Positions 1,233-14,890 of a stretch of DNA of 32,000 nucleotides are shown here, in pieces (within the stretch, counting starts at the first letter, position 1; each line of letters opens with the position of its first letter). The position numbers and the translations under genes are program-made. The notes under the pieces were generated by a model, which saw only the letters and a list, made by a program, of their open reading frames with translations, was not told the origin of the DNA and ran no database searches. Source of the stretch: Pyrodictium abyssi (GTDB lineage Archaea; Thermoproteota; Thermoprotei_A; Sulfolobales; Pyrodictiaceae); assembly GCF_036323395.1 (NCBI RefSeq), contig NZ_AP028907.1, positions 1,350,001 to 1,382,000 on the forward strand, in the 5' to 3' direction.

Positions 1233-2108
1233 TCAGCCCCAGAGCTTCCTTATTATATCTTTCACCGCCTCTTCTAGTGCTTTGACGCGGCACTCTAGGT
1301 CCTTCAGCAGATTCTCCATGTCGGCCAGCTTGGACACCATGTTCTTCAGCTCGCCTTGCAGCGCTGAGAGCTTGGCGGCAAGTATGTCTACTCTAGCGGA
1401 TATGTCGTTTATCGTCCTGGATAATAGGTCTACTTTTGCTTCTAGCTGGCTTACCCGTTTCTCAAGCTCGGTGTCCTTTGTTATCCTTTCCAGCTCTATG
1501 TTTATGCTAACAGATGAACCCACGTCCACGTTAGCCTCGGCTACGTAGTAGCCTGCTGCACGCACGAGTATCTTCACAGTCCCCTCTCGCACCGTGAGCG
1601 TCGCTTTGCCGTCCTTCCCGGTCTCCTCCACGTCTAACACATTACCCTTAGAGTCGTAGGCTACTACCACCGCCTTGGGCACCGGTAGCCCCGTGCCCTT
1701 CTCCACCACAGTTACGTAGACTGTTGGCAGCTTCGGTGGCGGCGGGAGCGGCTTGGACTTGAGAGTAAAGGTCGCTGAAGCTGATGCAGCGCCACAGACT
1801 ATTTCGACGCGGTAGTTCCCAGCAACCCATCCACCGGTCGGTATTGATGGTATGGGTATGCTAATCCCCTTAGCCGCGTCGTCGGCTGTTACGAGCATTA
1901 CCTTTACCGGCTCGCCTATCGGCGATAGCACACGTAGCGTAGCGATGTCGCAGGGAAGAGTGCCGTTCACCCTTATCTTCACAGTATCGCCATACTCATA
2001 GACGCTCTTGTCAAGCACTATCGTAAAGCTTGCAGCAATAGCCGCTGCCGAGAAGAGAGCCAGCGCGAGCACGTATAGAGGGAGTGTCCTCGTCCCGATG
2101 TGGCGCAT
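1233..2108 (-). CDS. Secreted protein: signal peptide, two beta-rich domains (the second is carboxypeptidase-regulatory/PEGA-like), Pro-rich linker and C-terminal ~80-aa coiled coil
   Basis: N-terminal signal LPLYVLALALFSAAAIAAS; PPPPKLP linker; VVEKGTGLPVPKAVVVAYDSKGNVLDVEETGKDGKATLTV motif; heptad-rich tail ELEKRVSQLEAKVDLLSRTINDISARVDILAAKLSALQGELKNMVSKLADMENLLKDLECRVKALEEAVKDI. An A/T-rich TATA-like stretch and GGAG lie upstream of the ATG. Confidence 0.8.
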   Translation of the reverse strand: MRHIGTRTLPLYVLALALFSAAAIAASFTIVLDKSVYEYGDTVKIRVNGTLPCDIATLRVLSPIGEPVKVMLVTADDAAKGISIPIPSIPTGGWVAGNYRVEIVCGAASASATFTLKSKPLPPPPKLPTVYVTVVEKGTGLPVPKAVVVAYDSKGNVLDVEETGKDGKATLTVREGTVKILVRAAGYYVAEANVDVGSSVSINIELERITKDTELEKRVSQLEAKVDLLSRTINDISARVDILAAKLSALQGELKNMVSKLADMENLLKDLECRVKALEEAVKDIIRKLWG

Positions 2109-2306: not shown

Positions 2307-3467
2307 CTAGCCGAGGCTAACGAGCAATGGCATCTTGACGCCGTTTACTTCATCCACCACCCTATACCATATAGTGTTGCCGCTCTCCACGAAGTTTTGG
2401 TAAGGGAGATAAGGAGGCTTCTCGTACAGCAGCGTACCGCCGAGCCGTACCACATGCTTGAAGCCTCCCTTGGATCTGTACACAGCTATTCTCACAGTCA
2501 TGTCGTCTAGCAGCGTTACGCGTATCCATTCGTCACCATCCATATCCGCCTTGGTGCAGTCTGTTATTACCTCGGGTGAGTCCTCCCAGGCTATTAGGAA
2601 GTCGCGGCCAGCACCCCCTACCGGCTCCAGTATGAAGCACATAGTCTCGTTATACGGCTGCCCATTTTGTGGGTGCACCTCGTGCTTGAAGCAGAGTGTA
2701 GTGTTCTCCCCCGGCCTAGTGTTCTCGAGCACCACCACGCCGCGGCCGCAGAAGAGGCTGTTGAGGTACGTGCCGTTGGACACGGGGAGTACCCGCCCCT
2801 CTACCGGGGTGCTGCCAGCGGGCTCGTAGCGGTACGTTCCTAGCGCTAAGTCTAGTACGAGTCTTGAGCGGAACACACCGGTACTACCGTCGTAGCCCTC
2901 GAAGATGAACGCTGGTAGTCTGGGTCCACCGCTCACACTCTTTACCTCGAAGTGCACCATTATGGGTAGGTTGTCAAAGAGTACTCCCTCCCGGGCCTCG
3001 TAGTAGGCTTTCCCCGTCAGCTCGGCGTAGGTGGCGTAGAAGTCGCTGTAGTCGAGCGTGATGAGCGCCGCTGGCCTGTCCAGCGTTAGCACGGCCTTCT
3101 CCTGCTCGCCACGGGCTGTGACGCTAGAGAGCACGACTTGTAGGCTCTGGAATGCTTTCTGCAGCTCCTCTACCGGCTCTAGCTCTGCTTTTATGACGGC
3201 TACTCCTACCCCGGGGAGCGGGCGTATCCTCACCCGGCCGAGACTCGCCTCCCCCATAGCGCCCGGAGAGGTGATAACGGTCCCTAGTCCTCCCTCGATC
3301 TCCAGGGGCTCGCTGGTAGCGCTAGCTTCCCCCACCGCTGAGCCTCCACCGCCCCCTGGAGCTAGGGTGGTAGCGTAGGCAAGGAGCAGCCCCGCAACCG
3401 CGAGGACTAGTGGCAGCGCGAATAGGAGTACCCGGCCCCCGGTGTCCATGGCTTCTACCCGGTGCAT
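2307..3467 (-). CDS. Secreted Can-like (cannula-subunit-family-like) domain fused to a ~200-aa C-terminal domain of unknown function
   Basis: Signal/TM segment VLLFALPLVLAVAGLLLAYATT. Residues ~30-180 share the same landmarks as the 11204 ORF: (Y/F)ATT...SEP(L/I)(E/D)(I/V); EKAVLTLDRPAALITLD versus EVKAVLSLKKPSAVIVLD; YYEAREGVLFDNLPIMVHFEVKSVS versus YYEAKEGMLFDSLPVILNFQVLSVS. The start may be Met7 (3449). Confidence 0.8.
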   Translation of the reverse strand: MHRVEAMDTGGRVLLFALPLVLAVAGLLLAYATTLAPGGGGGSAVGEASATSEPLEIEGGLGTVITSPGAMGEASLGRVRIRPLPGVGVAVIKAELEPVEELQKAFQSLQVVLSSVTARGEQEKAVLTLDRPAALITLDYSDFYATYAELTGKAYYEAREGVLFDNLPIMVHFEVKSVSGGPRLPAFIFEGYDGSTGVFRSRLVLDLALGTYRYEPAGSTPVEGRVLPVSNGTYLNSLFCGRGVVVLENTRPGENTTLCFKHEVHPQNGQPYNETMCFILEPVGGAGRDFLIAWEDSPEVITDCTKADMDGDEWIRVTLLDDMTVRIAVYRSKGGFKHVVRLGGTLLYEKPPYLPYQNFVESGNTIWYRVVDEVNGVKMPLLVSLG

Positions 3468-3622: not shown

Positions 3623-5383
3623 ATGGAGAGGTGGAGGGTGCTGAGGACCCTGCAGCGCTCTGGCCTGCTCGACACCGCGGCTGGGCTCCTGGTGGGGCTC
3701 TATGCTTCTCTGTTGTTCCGCGGCCTCGTAGCCGGGAGCGGGCTGCCTAGCTTCGAGCACGGTGTATTCAGGGATGCCAACATAGCGTTCTACATATCCT
3801 ACGCCACTATGATAGATGCCTGGGGTAGCCTCTGTGTGCCTACGTGGTTCGGCTTCTTCGACACTGTGCGGTTCTACCCACCGTTGGGAAACATGCTCAT
3901 CTATCTCCTAGGCGCCGTGCTGGACGGCGACTACGTGAGGGCCGCTATGCTGGCCTACATGGTTGTCCTCGTGGCGTTTGTCTCCGGGTTCTATACGCTC
4001 ATATACACGTTGACGGGGTCGCGGCTCGCGGGGCTTCTCGCGGCGCTGCTCCTGCCCCTAGTCCATGGCTACGCTTCCACTATTGCGCTGTACTGGGAGT
4101 ACAATAGGCTCCTCGGCGAGGCTTTCATGTTCCACGCGCTGGCGAGGCTCCACGCCTTCATGGAGCGCGGGGATAGGCGGCTGGCGCTCAGCGCAGCAGC
4201 CTACATGGCGCTAGTCCTGCTAAGCAACCTCGTAGCCTTCATAGAGGCGCTAGCGCTCGCACTAGCCACTGTCATGTACTGGGCCCGCCGCCACCTAGCA
4301 GAGGGCGCTGGCCCCGAGGAGCTGCTCTACCTTGCACAGAGGCTGGCCCTGGCATCCCTGTTCTTTCTCGGGCTTACGCTCTGGTGGCTCGCCCCCGCCA
4401 TAGCCCCCTACGGGCTGGGGCACTACCTCCGCATAAAGACGCCGCTAGGGTTCAAGGCTAGGGTCGTGGCCCTCGCGCTCCAGAGCGGGGCTCTACCGCC
4501 GCTCTGGAGCCCGGCGGTCCAGCTCCCGCTCCTCGTGGCAGGCGCCGTGGCTCTGATCATTCATCTGCTTCTCCGGAGCCGTGGCAGCGTGCTAGCCTAC
4601 TACGCTGCCGCACTAGCTGTGCTAATAGCCGTGTATGGACAGGGGCTGAGGCTTCTCCCGAGCCTCGGAGCCGTCCTAGCGGCTGCCGTCGCCTCGCTGC
4701 CACCCGCCGTAGCGGAGCGCGTAGGCGGCCGCTACCGCTGGGTGGCGGCAGCAGCCGCTATGATCCCGGCCATGCTTCTCGCTGGCTTCTACCTCGGCGC
4801 GTACCTGGGCGTCTATAGCACGCTTCTCCGGCCCGACTACAGCTTCATGGGGAGCGACGAGTACCGGGTAGCAGTGTGGCTGAGGGACAACCTGCCGGAG
4901 GGCTGTAAGGCCTACCTCATGCATGGGCCCCGGTTCCGCGGGGGCATGTGGGTCAACGTGTTCGCGCCGCGTGTCGAGCAGGTTCTGGGCGGCTACGTTG
5001 AGGGAGCTCTACCCGGTGTGGGGGACGAATACCTGCGCCTGGACTACATCATAAAGGAGACCGGCGACTGGTATACAGCCTACCAGCTTATGAAGAAGCT
5101 GGGCGTCGTGTACCTTGTCGTTGACAGGGCGTGGATGGAGTCCCACTGGGGCAGCGTCGTCGAAAGGCTAGAGAAGCGCGGGCTGATAGAGCCCGTGGAC
5201 GAGGTCAACAAGCAGCTAGGCTACAGCATGGTCTACCGGGTAGTCAACGCGACGTGCACAGACGGCTCTAGAGCCCCAGGGCTCTTCGAGTGTCTTGCGC
5301 TGCCCTCGAGGATTGTGGGCGCTGGGCTCTCGGCCGCCTCCATGCTTCTGTTTGCCCGCTGGCTGCGGAGGCTAGAGGACTAG
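3623..5383 (+). CDS. Large polytopic membrane protein with a C-terminal soluble domain (GT-C-glycosyltransferase-like architecture; function unproven)
   Basis: About 12 or more hydrophobic helices followed by a ~170-aa soluble tail. I moved the start to ATG 3623 (MERWRVL...). The 3410 start in the ORF track overlaps the divergent 2307-3467 gene, and its first 71 residues look non-coding. No AglB WWDYG motif was seen. Confidence 0.75.
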   Translation: MERWRVLRTLQRSGLLDTAAGLLVGLYASLLFRGLVAGSGLPSFEHGVFRDANIAFYISYATMIDAWGSLCVPTWFGFFDTVRFYPPLGNMLIYLLGAVLDGDYVRAAMLAYMVVLVAFVSGFYTLIYTLTGSRLAGLLAALLLPLVHGYASTIALYWEYNRLLGEAFMFHALARLHAFMERGDRRLALSAAAYMALVLLSNLVAFIEALALALATVMYWARRHLAEGAGPEELLYLAQRLALASLFFLGLTLWWLAPAIAPYGLGHYLRIKTPLGFKARVVALALQSGALPPLWSPAVQLPLLVAGAVALIIHLLLRSRGSVLAYYAAALAVLIAVYGQGLRLLPSLGAVLAAAVASLPPAVAERVGGRYRWVAAAAAMIPAMLLAGFYLGAYLGVYSTLLRPDYSFMGSDEYRVAVWLRDNLPEGCKAYLMHGPRFRGGMWVNVFAPRVEQVLGGYVEGALPGVGDEYLRLDYIIKETGDWYTAYQLMKKLGVVYLVVDRAWMESHWGSVVERLEKRGLIEPVDEVNKQLGYSMVYRVVNATCTDGSRAPGLFECLALPSRIVGAGLSAASMLLFARWLRRLED

Positions 5384-5458: not shown

Positions 5459-6601
5459 ATGCGTGTTCCCATACTAGTGCTTCTTCTGCTAGGCCTAGCT
5501 GTACTAGCACTAGCGGTGCACACGGCTAGAGCAGAGGAGGCACCGGATATAGACGCTGTGGGCAGGGTTAGATACGTCATCGACGGGGACACGATGAGAG
5601 TCTATATACTCCGCGTTGACCAGCCGGTGCAAGCGTGCAGTGAAGGAGTCCTAGAGCCCCGGGCCACCATAACGATACGGCTTGCCGACATAGATGCGCC
5701 AGAGCAGAATGAGCAGGACTACGAGAAGGCGCGGGATGCGCTAGAGCGACTGATAGACGGGAAGATAGTACACATAGACGTGGACGACTATAGCTGCATA
5801 GGATACTATGGAAGAGTCGTCGCCGTGGTCTATCTAGAGTATAACGAGACACACATGCTTAACGTGAACGAGTGGCTGCTCGAGGAGGGCTACGCACGGG
5901 AGTACAACTTTACAAACAACGAGTTTGACCCCAGGGACTGGAGCCTCTACGTGCCCATATTCCCCTGGGATGACTACGGCCTGGACTTCGTAAGGCTAGA
6001 GGGCGCCGGAAACGTCACGCTCAGCGGAGACATAGAACTCCAGGTCGCAGTCGTGGACAGCGGCCGCGAGCCCCTCATATGCTTCGGCGGAGGGAGGGGC
6101 TGCGAGAGCATAGACGGCGATCTCGGCGACACGCACAGAGTGAGGATAGTCCTCAACGACACCGACGGAGCCAGGCTACGGCTATACCCCGACGGCTACA
6201 TAGGCTACGTGAAAGATCTAGACATAGAGGAGCTTTACATCGATGACAGGCTTATAGCATCAGACACGAGCATAGAGGGGGTATACGGGCTCCGCATAAC
6301 ATGGGCGGATAACGGTATAAAGCTAGCATTCACGGGAAACATAACCCTACTAGAGCTCAACGGGGACCAGCTGGCCACACCCGGCCAGGAACCCGGGGCA
6401 ATAGTGCTCGAAGACCTAGTACCCCTCAGCCTAGGCCTAAGAGAGACGGCGAGCATCACCGGGTTCGCCAGGATGCTCGCAAACCCGGAGGAGGTACCAG
6501 AAGCGCCGCTTCCAGCGCTCCTAGCTCTACCCGTTGCAGCACTGCTCCTCGTCCTAGCCCTGCACATTTACTCCCAGCTCAAAAGGAGCCACAGCGGCTA
6601 A
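5459..6601 (+). CDS. Secreted, C-terminally membrane-anchored thermonuclease (staphylococcal-nuclease/SNase fold) with an extra ~200-aa ectodomain
   Basis: Signal peptide MRVPILVLLLLGLAVLALAVHTARA. SNase motifs VIDGDTMRV...IRLADIDAPE...GYYGRVVAVVY...NEWLLEEGYARE. Several N-x-S/T sequons. C-terminal tail PEEVPEAPLPALLALPVAALLLVLALHIYSQLKRSHSG, that is Pro-rich motif plus TM plus basic end. Confidence 0.85.
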   Translation: MRVPILVLLLLGLAVLALAVHTARAEEAPDIDAVGRVRYVIDGDTMRVYILRVDQPVQACSEGVLEPRATITIRLADIDAPEQNEQDYEKARDALERLIDGKIVHIDVDDYSCIGYYGRVVAVVYLEYNETHMLNVNEWLLEEGYAREYNFTNNEFDPRDWSLYVPIFPWDDYGLDFVRLEGAGNVTLSGDIELQVAVVDSGREPLICFGGGRGCESIDGDLGDTHRVRIVLNDTDGARLRLYPDGYIGYVKDLDIEELYIDDRLIASDTSIEGVYGLRITWADNGIKLAFTGNITLLELNGDQLATPGQEPGAIVLEDLVPLSLGLRETASITGFARMLANPEEVPEAPLPALLALPVAALLLVLALHIYSQLKRSHSG

Positions 6602-6702
6602 AACGGCATAGAGAGCACCGCTTGCGGCCTCCAGGCCCCTCCAAGCGTTCGTCGTCCTGGGGAAGGGCGAGGCCCTCTAGCTAGAAAGTTCTTTGTGTCT
6701 GG

Positions 6703-6918
6703 TTGCTTCCTGGTCTATACCCGGGGTGTTGTTTGTTAGGCCGCGTCGACTACGCTGTCAAGAGGTGGGGCCGGAGCCTCTACCTGCTACTCCCGAAGCA
6801 CATCGCCGACATGTACGGGATAGGCGTGGGGGACAGGTTCCTAGTGGAGGCCCGGGAGGAGGACGGGGAGGTGCTGATGGTCTTCAGGTTCCCGAGGAAG
6901 AAGGAGGAGAGAGGCTAG
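6703..6918 (+). CDS. AbrB/SpoVT(MazE)-family swapped-hairpin DNA-binding protein (antitoxin-like)
   Basis: VKRWGRSLYLLLPKHIADMYGIGVGDRFLVEA is a typical AbrB/SpoVT beta-hairpin core. The start is uncertain: TTG 6703 or TTG 6733. Confidence 0.65.
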   Translation: MLPGLYPGCCLLGRVDYAVKRWGRSLYLLLPKHIADMYGIGVGDRFLVEAREEDGEVLMVFRFPRKKEERG

Positions 6919-7155
6919 GCGGGCACGGGTACCCTCTTCTCTCGGGCCCTGATTTCCTCAAGGTAGCGGCGCCACCACTCCTCCTCAAGGTCTACCCCTT
7001 GCTCGGCTAGAGCCTCGAGGTAGTCCTCGAGGGCTTTGAAGACTTCGAGGGGGTCAACGCTCTCGGGGCACTGGAAGTGTTCTACGCAGAGCCAGGCCTC
7101 GTAGGGGGTGAGGCCTAGCCTCGGGAGCCCCCAGGGCCCGGTTTAGCCTGGTCAT
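6915..7155 (-). pseudogene. Small (~79 aa) conserved-looking ORF interrupted by a 1-nt frameshift in a G5/C5 homopolymer
   Basis: ATG 7155 is preceded by GGAGGG. The first frame, MTRLNRALGAPEARPHPLRG..., dies after 33 codons. Dropping one base of the C5 run at 7128-7132 gives MTRLNRALGLPRLGLTPYEAWLCVEHFQCPESVDPLEVFKALEDYLEALAEQGVDLEEEWWRRYLEEIRAREKRVPVPA*. It is convergent with, and overlaps, the AbrB gene stop. Confidence 0.4.
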
Positions 7156-7834
7156 CCCTCCTCTCTCCTCTTCTCTGTCTGCACCTCTTCTCCCTTATAT
7201 AGCCGGGACCGGGCAGAGGGCTAGCACCCAGCACTCTCCTAGGTGGATGTATAGGCTCCACTTCATGCCGCATGCAGGGTATAGGTGCCGGTCGAGGCCT
7301 AGCAGGGTCTTTCTGCCCCAGAGTAGCCGCATCCTAGCCTTCAGCCCTTCTCGTCTCCTTGTCCCTAACGATGCTGACGGCAAGGCCGAGCTTCCAGAGC
7401 CTTAGTGCCCCATCCCGCCCCGGCCTTCGAGGTATAGTCCAGGTATAGGGCTATGCCGCATCGTATATGAGCCAAAGCTATACCAAAGAGGCTACACAGC
7501 GGTCAAGGGCCGCCTCTGTGCAACATAGAGGCATTCACGCAGCTCCAGGTCCCATAGTAAGTTACACAAAACCAGCATCAGCTAGCAACACGCCATGATG
7601 CATGACACGCTCACTCCAGAAAGCCAGACGCCAGACAGAAGGGACAAGCCACACGCACGCCCAGAGCAGGGCTCTCAGGGAAGAGGGAGGCAAGGCATGG
7701 CTAGAGGAGGGGTGAAGAGCTGGCGGCAGGGCCTCACCCCCTCACCGGAGGGGGTCTCCGCCCCGCCGCCCAAGAGGGCTCGGCGCCCCGGCTGCCGCCC
7801 CGCCCGCATGCTGTAAAGCAGGCTATGGCGTAAT

Positions 7835-7952
7835 AAGTATCTTATAGACCGTTGAGCGGTCTCGTTTATCTCCAAGTATCCGTTGAGGCCCGCCAGCGTG
7901 CTTCGGGCTATGCGGATTGGCGCGCGATGCGCGTCTACATGCAGACCGGTCT
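7835..7952. promoter_or_regulatory. Repeat-rich putative operator/promoter region upstream of the 8007 operon
   Basis: Half-sites AGACCG/CGGTCT occur twice. One pair has a 5-nt spacer (7846-7862, AGACCGttgagCGGTCT). The other is a perfect 10-bp palindrome (7943-7952, AGACCGGTCT) that abuts a TATA-like ctatagcattagttt. The direct repeats AAGTATC...CGTTGAG also occur twice (7835-7856 and 7874-7887). Confidence 0.3.
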
Positions 7953-8006
7953 ATAGCATTAGTTTAGGAGAGCCATGCATCCGGCGAGCCGGGGGCCCTC
8001 GAAGCA

Positions 8007-9257
8007 TTGGTACCCGTACCCCGTGTTTGCTGTAGCCTTGCTGTAGCCGTGTTCATTGTTATGGCCGGTCTTGTTCCGGCTGCTTGGGCCGCGGGTCTCG
8101 ATAGGGTGTTGTATGTGGCTACTGATAGCTATGATGCTGCTTTCCTCGAGGCGTTTCTAGGCTACTATAACGCTACGGCTAGGCTGGTCTACTTCCTGAA
8201 CAGCAGCCGTGTCCTGGATGAGCTAGAATGCGGCCCAAGCGATGTACTAGTTCTCTTGGATCCCAATATAGACGATACGGGACTTGCCCATAATGCTAGC
8301 GAGCGCATAGCTAGGCTCCTGGTTGACGGCTGCACCGTGGTGGCTACCCATAATGGGCTGGCTCTCTTGAATCTCACACTCACCGAGCTGGGCTATGTGG
8401 TGCACTCGGTAGACAACGTGACCGTCACCATGCCTGGCTACAATACTACGAAGTACAGGTATGCCTACTTGGTCACGCCCGACGGTAGAGTCCTCAACAC
8501 TACTGTGTGGTCTATAGAGGTTGGGAAAGGGAGACTCGTGGGCGTGGCTCTGAACGTTGTCTGGGCCTATGCCGATACGAGGAACACTACGTACCTGGAA
8601 CTGCTCTACAGCGCCCTTCAGGAGGCACTCAGCTCTCCTCCACGACCAGGCGTGGGCACCGCAGCTACAGCGGTGGGGGTGGCTGTTGCCGGCTCAGCTG
8701 CAGCGACTCTAGCGTCTTCGCGGGCGTACACACGAGCAGGCACGCCTAGAGGGGGCGGGGGAGGCGGGCACACGGGTAGGAGCGGTGGGCTAGGCGGCAC
8801 CGGGGGCGCAGGAGAGCCGGAAGACGCGCTTGTGGTTGCTCCTCTACGTGTAAAGACAGAGCCCAGTGAGATGCTCGAGCATCCTCTGAGGGCGCGTATG
8901 CTCCAGGTTCTCCGCGAGCGCGGGGCTGTACACCATAACGAGCTTATGCGTGTGCTCGGTGTCTCTAAGGCCACGCTCCGGTGGCACCTCTATATGCTGC
9001 TCCGTGGAGGCTACATAGGGTCCCTCCGGTACAAGAAGTACCTGGTATACTTCGCGAGAGGCCGCGAGCTCGATGCCATCCGGAGCCTGGCGGCCCGGGA
9101 CGAGCAGTTCTGCGGCATCCTCCAGGGGCTCGCAGAGGGAGTCCCTCTTGAGGTCCTCTCGCGCCGCTATCGTGTCAGCGTGAAGGGGCTCCAGGATCTC
9201 AGCGAGCTTGTTAAGAGGCTGGACGGCAAGCTTACCGATGTATGTAGGGAGGCCTAG
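8007..9257 (+). CDS. Membrane-tethered one-component regulator: signal/TM, ~180-aa N-glycosylated ectodomain, Ala/Gly-rich TM, Gly-rich linker, cytoplasmic ArsR-like wHTH plus helical tail
   Basis: N-terminus CSLAVAVFIVMAGLVPAAWA. Eight N-x-S/T sequons in the ectodomain. VGTAATAVGVAVAGSAAATLASS followed by RGGGGGGHTGRSGGLGGTGGAG. wHTH LEHPLRARMLQVLRERGAVHHNELMRVLGVSKATLRWHLYMLLRGGYIGSLRYKKYLVYF. TTG start as in the ORF track. Confidence 0.8.
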   Translation: MVPVPRVCCSLAVAVFIVMAGLVPAAWAAGLDRVLYVATDSYDAAFLEAFLGYYNATARLVYFLNSSRVLDELECGPSDVLVLLDPNIDDTGLAHNASERIARLLVDGCTVVATHNGLALLNLTLTELGYVVHSVDNVTVTMPGYNTTKYRYAYLVTPDGRVLNTTVWSIEVGKGRLVGVALNVVWAYADTRNTTYLELLYSALQEALSSPPRPGVGTAATAVGVAVAGSAAATLASSRAYTRAGTPRGGGGGGHTGRSGGLGGTGGAGEPEDALVVAPLRVKTEPSEMLEHPLRARMLQVLRERGAVHHNELMRVLGVSKATLRWHLYMLLRGGYIGSLRYKKYLVYFARGRELDAIRSLAARDEQFCGILQGLAEGVPLEVLSRRYRVSVKGLQDLSELVKRLDGKLTDVCREA

Positions 9258-10569
9258 AGAGGCCTTGGAGGGTTTTAGCTACCTAGCGCACGAGCTGTCC
9301 TGGTGGCCAGTGTTCCTCCGGGGTCTCTTGTACTACCTCCTGGTAGCCATACTCGTCGCTGGCCAGGCAGTTATGAGCGTCTACGCGGCCTGGTACATTG
9401 CGTCGTTTATGGAGTACTTGGTCTGGAGGCGGCAGAGGCCCAGACTCGAGCCCATGTGGGAGGGGCCGCTGGTGGCTGTAGTTGTTCCTGTGTACAACGA
9501 TTATGAGGTCCGCTCCTCCCTGGAGGCCCTCGTGAAGCAGAAGTATAGGCCATACCTTGTAGTTATTGTTGATGATTCAAGCGACTTTGGGCTTGTCGCC
9601 GATCTCTCTAACCATGCGCTGAGAAGCGGTGGCAAGGTTATCCACCTCCGCCGCCATGGCCGGAGGGGTCTTAAGGCAGGGGCGTTGAACGACGCTATAG
9701 ACCTGCTCGAGAAGTATAGGCCAAAGTACGTGGTGTTCTTCGACGCCGACTTCGAGCCCCCGCCCGACACGCTGGCCAGGCTCGTAGCCTATGCCGAGCG
9801 CTTCGACGCCGACATAGTGCAGGGGTATCAGAGGCACGTAAAGGGCTCAGAGACACTGTTTGGGCTCGTATATCGTGCGAGCCAGGGAGGAGCTATAGTA
9901 AACATGATTGGCCGCATGATGATGAGCATGATGCCCATATTCACTGGTTCCTGCGCGCTCATCCGCTACGACCTGCTCTATGAGACCCGGTTCCGCGAGG
10001 GGAGCATCTCTGAGGACTGGAGGTGGACTATCGATGTACTCCTGGAGAGGGAGCGTCTCCGCTACATAGCGGTGGACGAGGTATACGCTAACGGTAGCGT
10101 GCCGAAGAGCCAGAGGGCGTTTATAAGGCAGCAACTCCGCTGGTCTAGCGGCACCCTATACGAGACACTATGCACGCTCCTAGACTTCATGTCCGCGAGG
10201 CTGCCGCTGGGCGTGAAGGTGGGCTACCTGCTCCAAGGGTTGTTCTACAGCCAGGGTCTCTGGGTGTACCTTACGGTCCTCTCCTCGCTGCTGCTAGCCC
10301 AGCTCTACGGCGTGGACCTCCAAAGCTACGTTTGGCCCCTGGGGCTCTACGTGTGGCTCCTAGGGATAGAGACCGCCATACTCGCTGGCGCGCTCATCGA
10401 GCGGTACACCCCGAGGCAGATACTCTCGACAGCTGTAGCGACCCTGGCTATGATATACTACGTGGCTGCCACCCATGCGTATGGGACGCTTATAGCCTTA
10501 CTAGGAGAGACAGCCTCGTGGCGGGTCACCGGGAAGAGGGGTAGCTATGAGGCAGAGTACCAGGATTAA
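9238..10569 (+). CDS. Integral-membrane processive family-2 glycosyltransferase (cellulose/chitin/PNAG/hyaluronan-synthase-like beta-glycan synthase)
   Basis: Motifs VVVPVYNDYE, VIVDDSSD, GLKAGALNDA, VFFDADFEP (DxD), SISEDWRW ((S/T)ED) and RQQLRWSSG (QxxRW). There are 1-2 N-terminal and about 4 C-terminal TM helices. I chose ATG 9238, which lies 20 nt inside the upstream ORF, over the 9208 alternative start. Confidence 0.9.
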   Translation: MYVGRPREALEGFSYLAHELSWWPVFLRGLLYYLLVAILVAGQAVMSVYAAWYIASFMEYLVWRRQRPRLEPMWEGPLVAVVVPVYNDYEVRSSLEALVKQKYRPYLVVIVDDSSDFGLVADLSNHALRSGGKVIHLRRHGRRGLKAGALNDAIDLLEKYRPKYVVFFDADFEPPPDTLARLVAYAERFDADIVQGYQRHVKGSETLFGLVYRASQGGAIVNMIGRMMMSMMPIFTGSCALIRYDLLYETRFREGSISEDWRWTIDVLLERERLRYIAVDEVYANGSVPKSQRAFIRQQLRWSSGTLYETLCTLLDFMSARLPLGVKVGYLLQGLFYSQGLWVYLTVLSSLLLAQLYGVDLQSYVWPLGLYVWLLGIETAILAGALIERYTPRQILSTAVATLAMIYYVAATHAYGTLIALLGETASWRVTGKRGSYEAEYQD

Positions 10570-11056
10570 CACCTTCTACAAGATACTACTCATGTTCCTA
10601 GTACTCACGGCAGCCCTTGAGGCACTCGTAGAAACTGTAGGCAGGCATATTATACAGCTAGAGGCAGACATGATAATGGTTGTCCTCGGCGCTGTCGGCG
10701 TAAAGGCCTTGTCCACTGCCCCTGGCACCGTAGCCATTATAGGAGACAGGGAAGTCGTAACCCTAGTGCTTACCGACGAGTGCATCGGAGTCTACTCGCT
10801 CGCCGTTTACGCGGGTCTAGTACTGCTTACGCCACTCGCGGGTAGCCGTAACAAGGCATACGCGCTCTCCTTTGGGCTCCCTCTACTATTCCTGATAAAC
10901 ACAGCCCGTATAGCCCTTGCAGGCCTTGTAGCCGCCCACCTGGGTGGCCCGTGGTTCCGAATAATCCATGACGTAGTGGGCAGCAGCACCATGCTGCTTG
11001 CCGTGACCCTTATATGGCTAAGATGGATAAGCCGCGCCCTCAGCGTGGATACATAA
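10547..11056 (+). CDS. Minimal (169 aa) exosortase/archaeosortase-family membrane protein
   Basis: Four to five TM helices. The family landmarks are in canonical order and spacing: LTDEC(79)IGVYSL, then FLINTAR(121)IALAG, then RIIH(141)DVVGSS. The ATG lies 23 nt inside the GT2 ORF, which indicates translational coupling. Confidence 0.7.
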   Translation: MRQSTRINTFYKILLMFLVLTAALEALVETVGRHIIQLEADMIMVVLGAVGVKALSTAPGTVAIIGDREVVTLVLTDECIGVYSLAVYAGLVLLTPLAGSRNKAYALSFGLPLLFLINTARIALAGLVAAHLGGPWFRIIHDVVGSSTMLLAVTLIWLRWISRALSVDT

Positions 11057-11203
11057 GCTAAACCCGGTACGCCCTACAGAGCCGGCACAAGCCCCCTCTA
11101 GCCGAGACGTCCTACAATACACGGTGTCTAGTATACAACACACTATAGCCCCGTACGCAAGGGAAATTCTTATTAGCTAGTTGCGCAACATTTATTACCC
11201 TGG

Positions 11204-11743
11204 ATGAGGGAGATGCGTTACCAGACACTAGCTCTCCTAGGCATAATAGCATCGGCTGCTGCTCTCGCCCTGCTAGCTGGCTTCGCCACTACCCAGAGCC
11301 CGCTAAGCAGCTTCTACGCCACCGGCACAGCACAAGCAGTAAGCGAGCCAATAGATGTGAAAGTGATAGGTGACCTCCAGATAAAGCCTGCTGCTGGTGC
11401 GCAGGGTAAGACCAGTGAGGTACAGTGGCTTAACATAACCAAGTATACCGATGTAAATGTTGTAAAGCTGAAGGTGAAGATAGCTAACGCTGCTCAGCTA
11501 AAGCCCTACTTCAAGTACCTACGGCTTGTGCTAAAGAGTGCTGACAGCAACGAGGTAAAGGCCGTGCTAAGCCTCAAGAAGCCTAGTGCGGTGATAGTAC
11601 TAGATGAGGAGGACTTCAGTACCAATGCTGGTAATGCAAATGACTGTATCATAAACGTGACTGCCTACTATGAGGCTAAGGAAGGTATGCTGTTCGACAG
11701 CCTACCAGTAATACTTAACTTCCAGGTACTAAGCGTCAGCTGA
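11204..11743 (+). CDS. Secreted Can-like (cannula subunit family / donor-strand jelly-roll fibre subunit-like) protein, 179-aa precursor
   Basis: Sec-type signal LALLGIIASAAALALLAGFA|TTQSPLSSFYATGTAQAVSEPIDV. It shares blocks with two other ORFs in the window. The C-terminus is AYYEAKEGMLFDSLPVILNFQVLSVS. From memory it closely resembles Pyrodictium abyssi CanA (unverified). TATA-like elements lie at 11165-11198 and an oligo-T tract follows downstream. Confidence 0.8.
   Translation: MREMRYQTLALLGIIASAAALALLAGFATTQSPLSSFYATGTAQAVSEPIDVKVIGDLQIKPAAGAQGKTSEVQWLNITKYTDVNVVKLKVKIANAAQLKPYFKYLRLVLKSADSNEVKAVLSLKKPSAVIVLDEEDFSTNAGNANDCIINVTAYYEAKEGMLFDSLPVILNFQVLSVS
11264..11340 (+). repeat. Copy 1 of a 77-nt near-identical block shared by the two Can-like genes (end of signal peptide plus mature N-terminus)
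   Basis: 75/77 nt identical to 13991-14067; mismatches only at 11305 and 11307. A second block, 11477-11519, matches 14201-14243 at 41/43 nt. Confidence 0.9.
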
Positions 11744-11792
11744 AGCCGCGGAATAAGGCGCGGACGAGATAAGGGTCGCATTTCATCTATAG

Positions 11793-11837
11793 TATTTTCT
11801 GCTTTTAATTTCAATTTCCTTATTTCCTTCTTCTCTT
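11793..11837 (+). terminator. Oligo-T / pyrimidine-rich archaeal terminator region after the Can-like gene
   Basis: tattttctgcttttaatttcaatttccttatttccttcttctctt lies in an AT-rich non-coding stretch. A short hairpin ccgcg-N8-cgcgg sits just after the stop codon. Confidence 0.4.
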
Positions 11838-12132
11838 GTAGCGCGGGGTTACGGTTCCTAATTGCTGCCGCTCGCTCATCCGTGATAAGTGCCGGATCAA
11901 AGCGTTAAGAGGCAACGGGAGTTTATGGGGTAAGGGCTCTAGGGACTAAATATTTTACTTTATCATTTCGACCTCTGCATCACTACATCACCAGCTTGTA
12001 GCCCTGTCTCCCGCATCTAGGCTAGCGTCCCCTTCTCGGCAGGACGGTGGGCCAGCCATCTGGGGCAATAGGCTATTGGATGGTTCCGCCACTGGCTTGG
12101 GGCTGATGCGAGCCGGTCAGCCGCTGAAGGCT

Positions 12133-12167
12133 TGGAGGCCATCGACTCTGTGCAAGGATGGCCTCCA
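12133..12167. other. Perfect 11-bp stem / 13-nt loop hairpin within a 330-bp apparently non-coding, structure-rich spacer
   Basis: tggaggccatc (12133-12143) pairs with gatggcctcca (12157-12167). Further hairpins lie nearby (ccagcg-N8-cgctgg). The decamer gcttggaggc occurs twice, 56 nt apart. Confidence 0.5.
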
Positions 12168-12350
12168 GCAGGGCGTATGCACGAGCTTGGAGGCGGTACG
12201 TGCAGTGCTTGACCGTTGGCCAGCGCCTGGAGACGCTGGCAGAGGAGCACGGCGTCTAACCAGCTACAGGAGGCTACTGCCCGTGGGACGCACGCAATCG
12301 GGCTGACGAGTTGTTCGACATTTGTGCCAACTGGTTGAGAGGTGGGCGGC

Positions 12351-12845
12351 CTAGTCTGCCCCTCTCCTCTTCACCATGGAGGCTATCTCCCTTACCAGCC
12401 TTTCCACCCTCCTGTAGGCCGTTGTGACGTCCTTTTCGGCGCACCAGCCTTCGTAGAAGCAGGTGTGCATCTCGTTGCCCGCGGCCCAGGCGTCGCTGAC
12501 CCATTCTCCTAGCTCTTTTTCGAGCACCCTCTTGTACATCCATAGCTCCCGGTGGCTGGTGAGCCTCTTGCCGCCCCTCCACCACGCGTAGGCCTTCACG
12601 GCCAGCGCAGCAGCGCCCCAAGCCTTCCCGGCAGCCTGCCTCACGTCGCCCCTCTCCAGCTCCTCGCGGGCCTACCCGAGAAGAGCTGTGGCGGCCTCCA
12701 CGTACTCCAGAGCCTTATCCTTCGGGTCCAAACCCTGGCTGAGAAGCTCCGCCACGTACTCGTCGACGCTAACCCCTAGCCTCCCAGCCTCCTCCCAGAC
12801 GCGCCGGGCGAGGCGGCCACGGACAACGATAACTGGCTGGTCCAA
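12351..12845 (-). pseudogene. PaREP1-family protein (RHH-like N-terminus plus PaREP1/HEPN-like helical domain) interrupted by an in-frame TAG
   Basis: The downstream ORF (12351-12644) reads RQAAGKAWGAAALAVKAYAWWRGGKRLTSHRELW...FYEGW, a PaREP1 signature. The same frame continues upstream through a TAG at 12672-12674 into (TTG 12845) DQPVIVVRGRLARRVWEEAGRLGVSVDEYVAELLSQGLDPKDKALEYVEAATALLG*AREELERGDV... Confidence 0.65.
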
Positions 12846-13106
12846 ACCTGGCCGCCACTCAGCGCTTATTATACTCGAGTACTGCTAGCTTTAACTTCGT
12901 CTCTCGGGCTTGCGGGACCCCGGGTACGCTATGTGGGCTTGTGATACACAGGGTAGATGATTGGCAGCGAGATGGCTGTGGGCCCGGAGGTGCCCCGTGG
13001 AGAGGCAGCAGCACACGGTCAAGGGCTTCTCTGCGGTTGCTCTTATAGCGTGCTACCCGGGTGTGCTCTAGGTAGGGGTTCTCGGTCTGTGTCTCTCAGC
13101 GGTGGT

Positions 13107-13673
13107 GTGGACCGGAGGGCTCTCGGGGAGGCGCTGCTGGAGCTGCTTGAGGAGGACCGGGAGTTCCGCCACGCTGTGATGGGGCTGCTGGGCTACCGCG
13201 AGGTACTGGAGAGGATAACCAGGCTTGAGGAGCGGTTCGCGAGACTAGAGGAGAGGTTCGCCAAGCTGGAGGAGGAGTTCCTGGAGCTGCGGAGGGCCCA
13301 GCAACGCCTCGAAGAGAGGCAGCAGCGCCTAGAGGAGAGGCAGCAGAAGCTAGAGGAGCACGGTATGGAGGAGCGGCGTGTGCAGAGGCTACGCTACGTG
13401 GACGCCGATGGGAGGTTCATAGCGCCGGGGGCTACGCTAGAGATAGACGTCTACATAAATGAAGGCGATGTATGGCTGGTGGAGGTGAAGAGCTACGTCG
13501 AGGCAGACGACGTCACATGGTTCTACGAGAAGACACGGATAGCGGAGAAGGTCCCCGGCCGGAGACCCTCCCGCAGGATAATGCTCGCAGTAGAGGCCAC
13601 AAAGGCCGCCGCGAGGGCCGCGGAGGCGCTAGGTGTAGAGCTGCTCGCCGACAAGATAGTAGAAGAGGAGTAG
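13107..13673 (+). CDS. Coiled-coil plus PD-(D/E)XK nuclease-fold protein (archaeal repetitive family)
   Basis: Heptad repeats RLEERFARLEERFAKLEEEF...RLEERQQRLEERQQKLEEH are followed by LEIDVYINEGDVWLVEVKSY (the D...E-x-K core). The start is uncertain. The ORF track begins at 12957, but residues 1-50 look non-coding, so GTG 13107 is proposed. Confidence 0.65.
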   Translation: MDRRALGEALLELLEEDREFRHAVMGLLGYREVLERITRLEERFARLEERFAKLEEEFLELRRAQQRLEERQQRLEERQQKLEEHGMEERRVQRLRYVDADGRFIAPGATLEIDVYINEGDVWLVEVKSYVEADDVTWFYEKTRIAEKVPGRRPSRRIMLAVEATKAAARAAEALGVELLADKIVEEE

Positions 13674-13939
13674 AGCAATACTCCTCCATAGACCTCTATG
13701 AAGCTTCTTTCTCAGCATGTCTTGTCCAGCACTCTAGGGCTTAGCCGGCTCTCCGGTTCTCATCCACACTATCCGCTGATCCTAGGGTCTCCACCCCACA
13801 TCTCTGCGAAGGATTCTTAGAGCCTCCCAGCGAGAGGAGGCCACATCAAAACACCTATGCCAAACCGCAGAAATATTCTAGGACATATTTTTGAGGCCAC
13901 GAAAACCACTCCTAGATATGATAGAGCAGAGTGCCCGCT

Positions 13940-14890
13940 ATGAGGCCTACGGCTCTGGCTCTGGCTGGCATCGTGGCCTCGGCTGCCGCCCTCGCCCTGC
14001 TAGCTGGCTTCGCCACTACCCAGAGCCCGCTCAACAGCTTCTACGCCACCGGCACAGCACAAGCAGTGCAAGAGCCAATAGACGTAGAAAGCCACCTAGA
14101 CACAGCAATAGCTCCCGCCGCCGGGGCGCAGGGAGCCAAGGACATGGGCTACGTAGTAGTACCGGTAGGCAGCCAGGTAGACGACGTAAAGCTCCTAGTA
14201 AAGATAGCTAACGCTGCACAGCTGAAGCCCTACTTCAAGTACCCCATGCTACAGATAACAAGCAAGTACGAGATACGAGAAAATGACACAGTGGTTGTGG
14301 AGGTGCGTTTGAGTAATTCGGTGAACCGGATATAGTATAGGGGGTAGCGACGACACTGTAGTAGTGCAGACTAAGGAGTACTTGCCTTGGTCTGGCTGTA
14401 GGAACATAACGGTGGTTGATGAAGAGGATAGTGACGGGGATTGGGCCCTGGTGGAGGTATGCAGCGATAGGGGTAGCGGCGGGAACGCAATGAATGCTAC
14501 TATCTATAGCCTCGGGTTCACCAGCACTAGTGGCACATGGTATCTATTAGAGCCCGTCAGAACGGGCAACATAAACATATCCGGCATACTAAGAGTGGAC
14601 AACACGGTAGTTTGGAAGGAGGCTGCCGATGATAGTTATAGCGAGGTTAAGGCTGTGCTTAGCCTCTGGAAGCCCAGTGCTGTGGTTATCCTCGATGCCG
14701 AAGATATAGTAGAGATTGAGCACGGCTGTGATAAGGGCGTGTTCCTTGACAAGAACGGTTGATAGCTGGCCCTGGTATGGACTGGAAGGGTGCTGTCCTG
14801 GCTCTGAAAGCGTTCTACGAGATCCGTGAAGGCGCATTGTTCGACAGCCTACCGATAATCCTTAGCATAGAAGTACTGAATACCAGCTAG
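13940..14890 (+). pseudogene. Second Can-like gene, larger paralogue with a ~130-aa insertion, split into three ORFs by a +1 and then a -1 frameshift
   Basis: ORF a (13940-14335): signal plus ATTQSPLNSFYATGTAQAVQEPIDV...AQLKPYFKY. ORF b (frame +1, open 14325-14762) contains EVKAVLSLWKPSAVVILDAEDIV. ORF c (back in the original frame, open 14750-14890) reads KGAVLALKAFYEIREGALFDSLPIILSIEVLNTS*. All three pieces are collinear with the intact 11204 gene. Confidence 0.75.
13991..14067 (+). repeat. Copy 2 of the 77-nt near-identical Can N-terminal block
   Basis: See 11264-11340; the offset is 2727 nt, so the two copies are in the same reading phase. Confidence 0.9.

Follow-up and report, generated by a model that had tools for sequence, protein, structure and literature searches.

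Among described C-terminal protein-sorting systems, the closest in architecture to the one reported here is the bacterial XrtG system of Firmicutes (NCBIfam TIGR03110 and TIGR03111), which in Lactiplantibacillus plantarum consists of a Firmicu-CTERM target, the enzyme XrtG and two glycosyltransferases encoded by consecutive genes (PMC12854382). The archaeal members of the same enzyme family, the archaeosortases, are placed by reviews in Euryarchaeota, or in halophiles and methanogens, and, again according to reviews, ArtA is the only one studied experimentally. Here we analyzed a 32,000-nt stretch of the Pyrodictium abyssi genome (contig NZ_AP028907.1, positions 1,350,001 to 1,382,000; hereafter, the window), in which three consecutive genes encode a membrane protein with a winged helix-turn-helix (wHTH) domain, a membrane glycosyltransferase (GT2) and a mini-archaeosortase. 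We consider it probable that these genes are three-fifths of a cassette conserved in Desulfurococcales, namely, a one-enzyme-one-target archaeosortase system coupled to glycan synthesis. A preliminary description of the locus had combined the three genes with the Can-like gene that follows them into a matrix-assembly module linked to cannulae. Our best reading is that Desulfurococcales possess, in this cassette, a dedicated archaeosortase and glycosyltransferase system that has not been described before and is not cannula machinery; the cassette is conserved in many thermophilic archaea without cannulae. No paper describing this cassette was found in a literature search that did not cover Haft et al. 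2012, and a full-text literature search for ArtF returned nothing.

Comparison with known sorting systems

In both the Desulfurococcales cassette and the XrtG system, consecutive genes encode an exosortase-family enzyme of small size (~170-190 aa), a membrane GT2 of ~440 aa, another glycosyltransferase and just one tail-bearing target. The likeness extends to sequence: the P. abyssi sortase matches the XrtG model (2.6e-7; score 30.7 versus a cut-off of 102.75), the P. abyssi GT2 weakly matches the NCBIfam models of XrtG- and XrtP-associated glycosyltransferases, and the GT2s of the cassettes match the XrtG-associated glycosyltransferase model (TIGR03111) at 3e-3 to 2e-5 (scores of 16-24 versus a cut-off of 364). 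However, the host is an archaeon (Thermoproteota), the tail motif is NGxEVPE and, in most loci, a membrane wHTH gene is inserted. The scores fall well short of the cut-offs of the models and the tail differs, so membership in the XrtG system is not supported.

With ArtA/PGF-CTERM of Haloferax volcanii and with ArtB-ArtH, the P. abyssi system shares the enzyme family and its conserved Cys, Arg and His, as well as the logic of a substrate that is exported by Sec and ends in a motif, a helix and basic residues. Whereas ArtA is larger, serves many substrates per genome and attaches a prenyl-derived lipid, the P. abyssi enzyme is minimal (169 aa), has one adjacent target and is accompanied by two co-inherited glycosyltransferases; it also comes from Desulfurococcales, outside the groups in which reviews place archaeosortases. 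A genomic tie between an exosortase and exopolysaccharide genes and regulators is shared with the PEP-CTERM/XrtA (EpsH) system of Gram-negative bacteria (PMC1569441). XrtA, however, has ~8 membrane spans and extra domains, many PEP-CTERM targets and Wzx/Wzy-type exopolysaccharide loci, in contrast to the minimal enzyme, single target and synthase-type GT2 found here.

A conserved gene cassette in related loci

We assembled ~17 related loci from the contigs of the closest sortases and from a scan of one genome per species with the GT2 alignment, and annotated them by BLAST with the proteins of P. abyssi and Hyperthermus butylicus (locus labels L001-L022). The GT2 and sortase genes are adjacent in all recovered loci and usually overlap, by 8-38 nt in 7 of the 8 loci measured. 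In P. abyssi, ATG 9238 of the GT2 gene lies 20 nt inside the wHTH open reading frame (ORF) and ATG 10547 of the sortase gene 23 nt inside the GT2 ORF. The three genes thus form one tightly coupled unit, as the preliminary description had proposed, and the GT2-sortase overlap recurs in other species. That description had, however, omitted two upstream genes of the same system, one for a candidate sortase target and one for a large polytopic membrane protein, here termed BIGTM. Within cassettes, junction distances are mostly -38 to +12 nt; a few are wider, up to 184 nt (L018).

The common order, target - wHTH - GT2 - sortase - BIGTM, was found in H. butylicus (L005), Desulfurococcus mucosus (L021), L007, L008, L018 and, with frameshifts, Thermogladius (L011). 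L004, L006 and L012 have target - GT2 - sortase - BIGTM, and because the wHTH gene is absent from these three loci, it is dispensable to the cassette. The remaining order, (target) - GT2 - sortase - wHTH - BIGTM, occurs in L009, L010 and L019. BIGTM orthologues directly follow the sortase gene in L001, L004-L008, L011, L018, L020 and L021; in L009 and L019, it is the wHTH gene that they follow. Ancestrally, the genes are arranged as target - (membrane wHTH) - GT2 - mini-archaeosortase - GT-C-like membrane protein, and the cassette extends to Desulfurococcus, Thermogladius and Acidilobaceae. In P. abyssi, all genes are on the same strand in the order BIGTM, target, 1.4-kb spacer, wHTH, GT2, sortase, which is the common order circularly permuted; such an arrangement would result from a tandem duplication in which the outer copies were then lost.

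Some loci show features of their own. In L011 (Thermogladius sp. 4427co), two ORFs (8802-9990) make up the wHTH gene and three (11785-13553) the BIGTM gene, and this cassette may be decaying or may contain assembly indel errors. A MurJ/MatE-type flippase gene adjoins the cassette in L018 (6131-7471, minus strand), and a second GT2 gene follows BIGTM in L019 (5848-7047, plus strand).

The mini-archaeosortase

The preliminary description had assigned the 169-aa product to the exosortase/archaeosortase family from its Cys-Arg-His layout. Family models bear this out (TIGR04178, 48.5 bits versus a cut-off of 23; PF09721, 30.5 bits versus 25.7), and the layout, C79/R121/H141, is kept in an alignment of the 25 closest sequences, in which N118, R121 and H141 are invariant and C79 is conserved in at least 90%. 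A hydropathy scan yielded six overlapping hydrophobic segments that collapse to ~5 spans. None of the named subfamily models (ArtA-ArtH, XrtG, XrtH, XrtX and others) reached its cut-off with the P. abyssi sortase; besides XrtG, the best scores were 42.7 for ArtB and 39.9 for ArtF (cut-offs of 150 each), 39.1 for XrtX (cut-off of 170) and 20.3 for XrtH (cut-off of 86). Similarly, none of its 24 nearest relatives reached a named Art/Xrt cut-off, the best E-value of 1.1e-22 being read as well below the 86-170-bit cut-offs.

Word-indexed homologue searches yielded few proteins (2 with the sortase alone, 4 with the sortase alignment and 2 with the BIGTM alignment). An exhaustive HMMER search of 1.84 billion representatives recovered 229 sortase relatives at E<=1e-3, of which just 13 were at E<=1e-10. 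Together, the profile search, the conserved residues and the weak subfamily matches argue that the clade is real, catalytically intact and unnamed. To judge from these comparisons, the sortase belongs to the exosortase/archaeosortase family but to none of its named subfamilies. The UniRef label 'Exosortase H' carried by the P. abyssi sortase was judged uninformative; it is seemingly automatic and misleading. Separately, L022 (1-808) encodes a mini-sortase of a different clade (P0017), preceded by a gene with a tripartite tail (…VSGVPASSGWSVGLLALAGVVLIGTRMKRHGFERS), apparently another dedicated enzyme-target pair.

The candidate target and its sorting signal

Outside P. abyssi, the first cassette gene encodes a secreted, beta-rich protein without a match in Pfam or NCBIfam. 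In 13 of the 14 informative loci, a target-like gene is found immediately before the rest of the cassette, and it supplies the cognate protein, with a signal peptide and a motif-helix-basic tail, that is expected of a partner of this enzyme family. The 11 orthologues recognisable by BLAST have a signal peptide, a motif of the [VI]NGxE[VI]P[ETK] type, a ~20-residue hydrophobic helix and an R/K cluster; a four-sequence alignment shows no variation at the N, E and P of this motif. In L009 and L010, the target position is occupied by diverged tail-bearing proteins.

In P. abyssi, the tail of the target reads ANPEEVPEAPLPALLALPVAALLLVLALHIYSQLKRSHSG, with ANPEEVPE as the motif, and is the only tripartite tail encoded in the window. 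The C-terminal half of this protein is homologous to the product of the first H. butylicus cassette gene (BLASTP 2e-4, and alignments), and the protein also contains a staphylococcal-nuclease domain (Pfam SNase, 8.9e-12) and 5 N-glycosylation sequons. In this protein, the conserved target domain is fused to a gained nuclease domain. A tripartite tail of this kind is the defining feature of sortase, exosortase and archaeosortase substrates. In a dedicated sorting system, by the criterion of Haft, the enzyme and its only target are encoded side by side and the motif directly adjoins the helix (10.1101/2023.06.07.544157). By that criterion, the tripartite tail and the adjacency of target and enzyme make this protein a strong substrate candidate, other than the Can-like protein. 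The question of the substrate, which the preliminary description had left open, is thereby narrowed to an adjacent secreted protein with a conserved tripartite tail.

No NCBIfam CTERM model matched the targets scanned (E<=1; E<=0.1 for the P. abyssi target), and a 'midcut-by-XrtH' match of one target (0.018) was weak and judged uninformative. A profile match of the target domain to Tako8, a designed 8-bladed propeller in the PDB (2e-15), was rejected as a repeat artefact rather than homology because the score was made up of eight repeated matches of one ~35-residue strand-rich segment. Comparison of the target domain with the Can-like domain by hhalign gave a probability of 9%, so the two are taken to be unrelated.

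The glycosyltransferases

The GT2 matches Pfam Glycos_transf_2 (7e-22), Glyco_tranf_2_3 and Glyco_trans_2_3, and the six motifs reported for it earlier (VPVYND, DDSSD, KAGALN, FDADF, SEDWRW and QQLRWSSG) are all present, at residues 83, 112, 146, 168, 258 and 298 of the 443-aa product. All six, the D, DxD, (T/S)ED and QxxRW motifs among them, are invariant across five orthologues. In common with BcsA, PgaC/IcaA, NodC and the chitin and hyaluronan synthases, the protein has D, DxD, SED (TED-like), QxxRW and PIFTGSC (FFCGS-like) motifs and, as in the BcsA/PgaC class, membrane helices flank the GT-A domain on both sides (hydrophobic segments at aa 22-54, 341-359 and 368-388). The closest NCBIfam models, PgaC/IcaA, NodC and CelA, are each missed by far (PgaC, 45 versus 422). 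A profile of the orthologues matches the cellulose synthase BcsA at 1.3e-12 over the FFCGS, TED and QxxRW region and aligns to the first BcsA membrane helices after QxxRW. The motif set, the best relatives and the BcsA alignment agree with the earlier assignment of this GT2 to the BcsA/PgaC/NodC class.

The GT2 differs from the members of that class in missing the equivalog models ~tenfold in score, in having neither a PilZ domain nor a BcsB- or PgaD-like partner, and in its own invariant motif, W-x-V-T-x-K-R-G, at the extreme C-terminus (aa 427-436, window ~10516-10545; 5 of 5 aligned orthologues). We presume this motif to resemble the (S/T)WGT(R/K) motif of chitin and hyaluronan synthases.

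The second glycosyltransferase would be BIGTM. Proteins of this family are polytopic and ~560-600 aa long; their C-terminal part is globular, with a final helix. The P. abyssi member is 32-39% identical to its orthologues. The D. mucosus orthologue matches PF10131 (PTPS_related) with a score of 30.2, above the gathering score of 26.4, and matches below threshold were obtained in the same register for L006 (18.3), L019 (12.8) and P0153 (9.9). A BIGTM profile retrieved nothing from the PDB sequences. As PF10131 is listed in the GT-C clan CL0111 (PMC7801869), BIGTM is predicted to be a divergent GT-C clan member of the PF10131 family.

The membrane-tethered regulator

The wHTH protein matches HTH_20 (31.5 bits, cut-off 27), and when a profile of 10 orthologues was compared with solved structures, only the HTH matched, to the ArsR/BigR/HlyU families (5DUK, 1UB9, BigR 3PQJ and HlyU; profile positions ~261-340). 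An ArsR-type HTH is thus present on a membrane protein, as previously suggested. The P. abyssi protein consists of a signal/anchor (aa 1-32), an ectodomain (~33-210), a weak span (~214-238), a Gly-rich linker and the wHTH (290-337). With a Kyte-Doolittle maximum of 1.52, this second span, rich in Ala and Gly, is only weakly hydrophobic. The 8 N-x-S/T sequons all fall within aa 55-193, in the ectodomain, which supports the outside-inside topology. The 10 orthologues (L002, L005, L007-L011, L018, L019 and L021) follow the same plan of signal/anchor, ~180-aa ectodomain, weak Ala-rich span, linker and wHTH, and their ectodomains carry invariant DPNW and NxVWAYxDT-like motifs. A membrane-tethered one-component regulator would be a fair description of this protein.

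Layout of the P. abyssi locus

The coordinates of the cassette genes and their surroundings are collected in Table 1. None of the starts tried for the wHTH and GT2 genes gives a product equal to the deposited proteins. The spacer between the target and wHTH genes (6602-8006) holds a small ORF and an inverted repeat, which may be the remnant of an inserted element. A search of the window for tRNAs and Rfam families gave no match. Upstream of the cassette, the 1233-2108 product is likely another surface or matrix protein.

Table 1. Features of the P. abyssi window (positions are those of the window)
Feature	Position	Strand	Remarks
Secreted protein	1233..2108	-	291 aa; CarboxypepD_reg beta-sandwich domain, long C-terminal coiled coil
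Protein with Can-like N-terminal domain	2307..3467	-	386 aa; (…KAYYEAREGVLFDNLPIMVHFEVKSVS); C-terminal extension ~190 aa; divergent from adjoining BIGTM gene
Large polytopic membrane protein BIGTM	3623..5383	+	586 aa as annotated, WP_338248753.1; longest ORF from 3410
Candidate sortase target	5459..6601	+	380 aa, WP_338248755.1; signal peptide, SNase domain aa 72-155, beta-rich target domain, sorting signal
C-terminal tripartite sorting signal of target	6485..6598	+	...ANPEEVPEAPLP-ALLALPVAALLLVLALHIY-SQLKRSHSG (motif, hydrophobic helix, basic residues)
MazE/AbrB-type ORF in spacer	6703..6918		71 aa; 1.2e-7
Inverted repeat in spacer	7103..7120 / 7725..7742		18 nt, bracketing 604 nt
Membrane-tethered ArsR-type wHTH protein	8007..9257	+	416 aa from TTG start
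Processive-class membrane GT2	9238..10569	+	443 aa from ATG 9238; alternative start TTG 9208
Mini-archaeosortase	10547..11056	+	169 aa, WP_338248765.1 (identical); Cys79, Arg121, His141, Asn118
CanX paralogue, outside conserved cassette	11213..11743	+	176 aa, WP_338248767.1
PaREP1-family gene	12351..12644	-	between two Can-like genes
Coiled-coil PD-(D/E)XK nuclease-family gene	12957..13673	+	between two Can-like genes
Apparently split Can-like gene, first ORF	13931..14335	+	Can signal peptide and N-terminal half
Apparently split Can-like gene, second ORF	14364..14762	+	conserved 'EVKAVLSLWKPSAVVILDAEDI' block

The CanX paralogue next to the cassette

The gene downstream of the sortase does encode a Can-like protein, as the preliminary description had stated: the major subunit of native cannulae, CanX (PDB 9H8B), shares 72% identity with its product, which also matches CanA (7UII) at 1.6e-39. 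This product and CanX have a signal peptide, a donor-strand N-terminus and a C-terminal ...FDSLPVILNFQVLSVS in common; it is a paralogue, CanX itself being WP_338251948.1. The 179-aa ORF starting at ATG 11204, 147 nt after the sortase gene, is present in the sequence, but the annotated start is ATG 11213, which gives a 176-aa product and a gap of 156 nt. The UniRef label of this paralogue, 'Type VI secretion system tube protein Hcp', is seemingly automatic and misleading.

We weighed the proposal that this subunit is what the sortase and the polymer made by the GT2 act upon, anchor or embed. It draws on the short distance between the sortase and Can-like genes on the same strand, on the absence of a clear terminator between them, on two further Can-like genes within 12 kb and on the glycoprotein nature of cannula subunits. 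The known cannula glycan, however, is N-linked N-acetylglucosamine (GlcNAc), and an N-linked GlcNAc-type glycan is not expected from a BcsA-type synthase. The P. abyssi Can-like product ends in ...NFQVLSVS, without a helix or a basic tail, and Can proteins in general lack such a sorting tail. No Can-like gene was found in the related loci, either by BLAST (L001-L022) or by the more sensitive unfiltered HMM and phmmer --max searches (L001-L016). The GT2/sortase pair therefore stands without a can-like gene in every related locus, a result that the preliminary description had itself named as one that would refute the link.

The closest relative, a metagenome-assembled genome of Pyrodictium sp. 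(L002) with a 77% identical sortase, aligns to the window over 7935-11020 only (85.6% identity). Synteny thus ends just before the sortase stop codon, and the 611 nt after the L002 sortase gene contain no Can-like gene. The 11001-12000 segment, ~half of which is the Can-like gene, has 48.8% G+C, versus 57-59% for the cassette. Furthermore, the cassette occurs outside Pyrodictiaceae, in Desulfurococcus, Thermogladius and Acidilobaceae, whereas CanX homologues were reported exclusively in Pyrodictiaceae, with Can gene neighbourhoods devoid of dedicated factors, and recombinant CanA self-assembles, driven by calcium alone (Sleutel et al.). The lack of Can-like genes in related loci, the synteny break and the distribution indicate that the juxtaposition with a Can gene is specific to P. 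abyssi. The CanX-like gene looks like a recent lineage-specific neighbour, not a partner, of the cassette, and its apparent operon link is a local accident of genome rearrangement.

The DNA upstream of two Can-like paralogues has no common promoter block, only signal-peptide coding DNA being conserved, which gives no support for an independent Can promoter. A BRE/TATA-like sequence, GGGAAATTCTTATTAG, was read by eye at about 11160-11176. Farther downstream, a larger Can-like gene appears to be split by a frameshift or stop (Table 1) and is either a pseudogene or a sequencing error. The ~190-aa extension of the Can-like protein encoded at 2307-3467 matched no family. The MazE-like ORF, the PaREP1 and PD-(D/E)XK genes and the frameshifted Can-like gene are consistent with a rearranged region.

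Possible functions of the cassette

Several observations weigh against reading the cassette as a dedicated archaeosortase-glycosyltransferase system that includes the P. abyssi genes. The P. abyssi tail motif is the most deviant of all (ANPEEVPE, not VNGxEVPE), and 1.4 kb parts the target gene from wHTH-GT2-sortase. No target was found in the DNA stretch covered for L019, the L010 candidate is too diverged for BLAST recognition, and further tail-bearing proteins may be encoded elsewhere in these genomes. The P. abyssi BIGTM matched no Pfam or NCBIfam model, PF10131 included, and its AlphaFold2 model, built from a 2-sequence alignment, was too poor for use (predicted local distance difference test score, pLDDT, of 44.5). 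No obvious oligo-T terminator could be read in the 147-nt gap before the Can gene and, because a clear terminator is lacking there, read-through or co-transcription into that gene is possible. Finally, cleavage, the acceptor, the glycan and the signal sensed by the regulator are all inferred.

From the observed gene content and order, protein families, catalytic residues and tripartite tail of the adjacent secreted protein, a working model can be drawn. Sec would export the target, whose C-terminal helix would keep it in the membrane. The archaeosortase, with Cys79 as nucleophile together with Arg121 and His141, would cut at or beside the NGxEVPE motif, and the new C-terminus would be passed to an acceptor, by analogy with ArtA and sortases. 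The BcsA/PgaC-like GT2 and the GT-C-like protein may make or decorate a glycan or glycolipid that serves as the acceptor or as a co-assembled surface polymer, and the wHTH protein, with its glycosylated ectodomain, might tune transcription of the cassette to an outside signal. In its most specific form, this model is a protein-glycan conjugation machine, in which the mini-archaeosortase transpeptidates the target at NGxEVPE onto the nascent beta-glycan or glycolipid made by the BcsA-like GT2 and the GT-C-like enzyme; we offer this form tentatively, as a possibility of low probability.

The same genes could serve three-component glycosylation of protein or lipid, in which the GT2 charges polyprenyl phosphate with a sugar (as GtrB, CsbB and DPMS do), the GT-C-like protein transfers this sugar to the exported target on the outside of the cell and the sortase only trims or releases the glycosylated target. 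A GT2 paired with a membrane protein of the GT-C clan is the classic layout of such systems, and the relationship of BIGTM to PF10131, the 5 sequons of the target and the match of the GT-A part of the GT2 to the Dol-P-Man synthase 5MLZ (4.5e-9) all fit. However, the GT2 has the full D, DxD, TED and QxxRW set and C-terminal membrane helices, and over its full length it best matches BcsA, PgaC and NodC, also in the stretch from QxxRW to the membrane helix, which GtrB and DPMS lack. The flippase gene, which would also suit this scheme, adjoins the cassette in one locus only (L018). We regard three-component glycosylation as doubtful.

It is quite unlikely that the archaeosortase cuts the tail merely to release the target into the medium, as a free nuclease in the case of P. 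abyssi, with the glycosyltransferases making an unrelated exopolysaccharide under shared regulation. Elsewhere, this nuclease domain usually occurs as a secreted enzyme, and endopeptidase activity is the only one established experimentally for the enzyme family. Even for ArtA, transpeptidation in one step has yet to be proven (10.1101/2023.06.07.544157), which also counts in favor of simple release. Yet the GT2, sortase and BIGTM genes are tightly co-inherited and frequently overlap across ~17 loci, which argues for one pathway, and both ArtA substrates and GlyGly-CTERM proteins gain a new C-terminal moiety after cleavage. The cannula module, given the evidence set out above, is very improbable and, as a conserved functional link, largely refuted.

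Implications

The negative result for cannulae agrees with the published view that these structures assemble without dedicated factors. As a dedicated archaeosortase and glycosyltransferase system, the cassette brings to the hyperthermophilic Thermoproteota a minimal archaeosortase whose single target can be clearly assigned, and it defines a new C-terminal sorting motif that is tied to two glycosyltransferases and a membrane-bound regulator. It thereby offers a compact, testable system for the family-wide question of the acceptor, for which the product of the neighbouring genes is an obvious candidate. If the conjugation model is true, the outcome would be a covalently anchored surface or matrix glycoconjugate and, in P. 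abyssi, a nuclease tethered in the same extracellular space as the cannulae. To our knowledge, such a machine would be the first sortase-type sorting system characterised in Thermoproteota.

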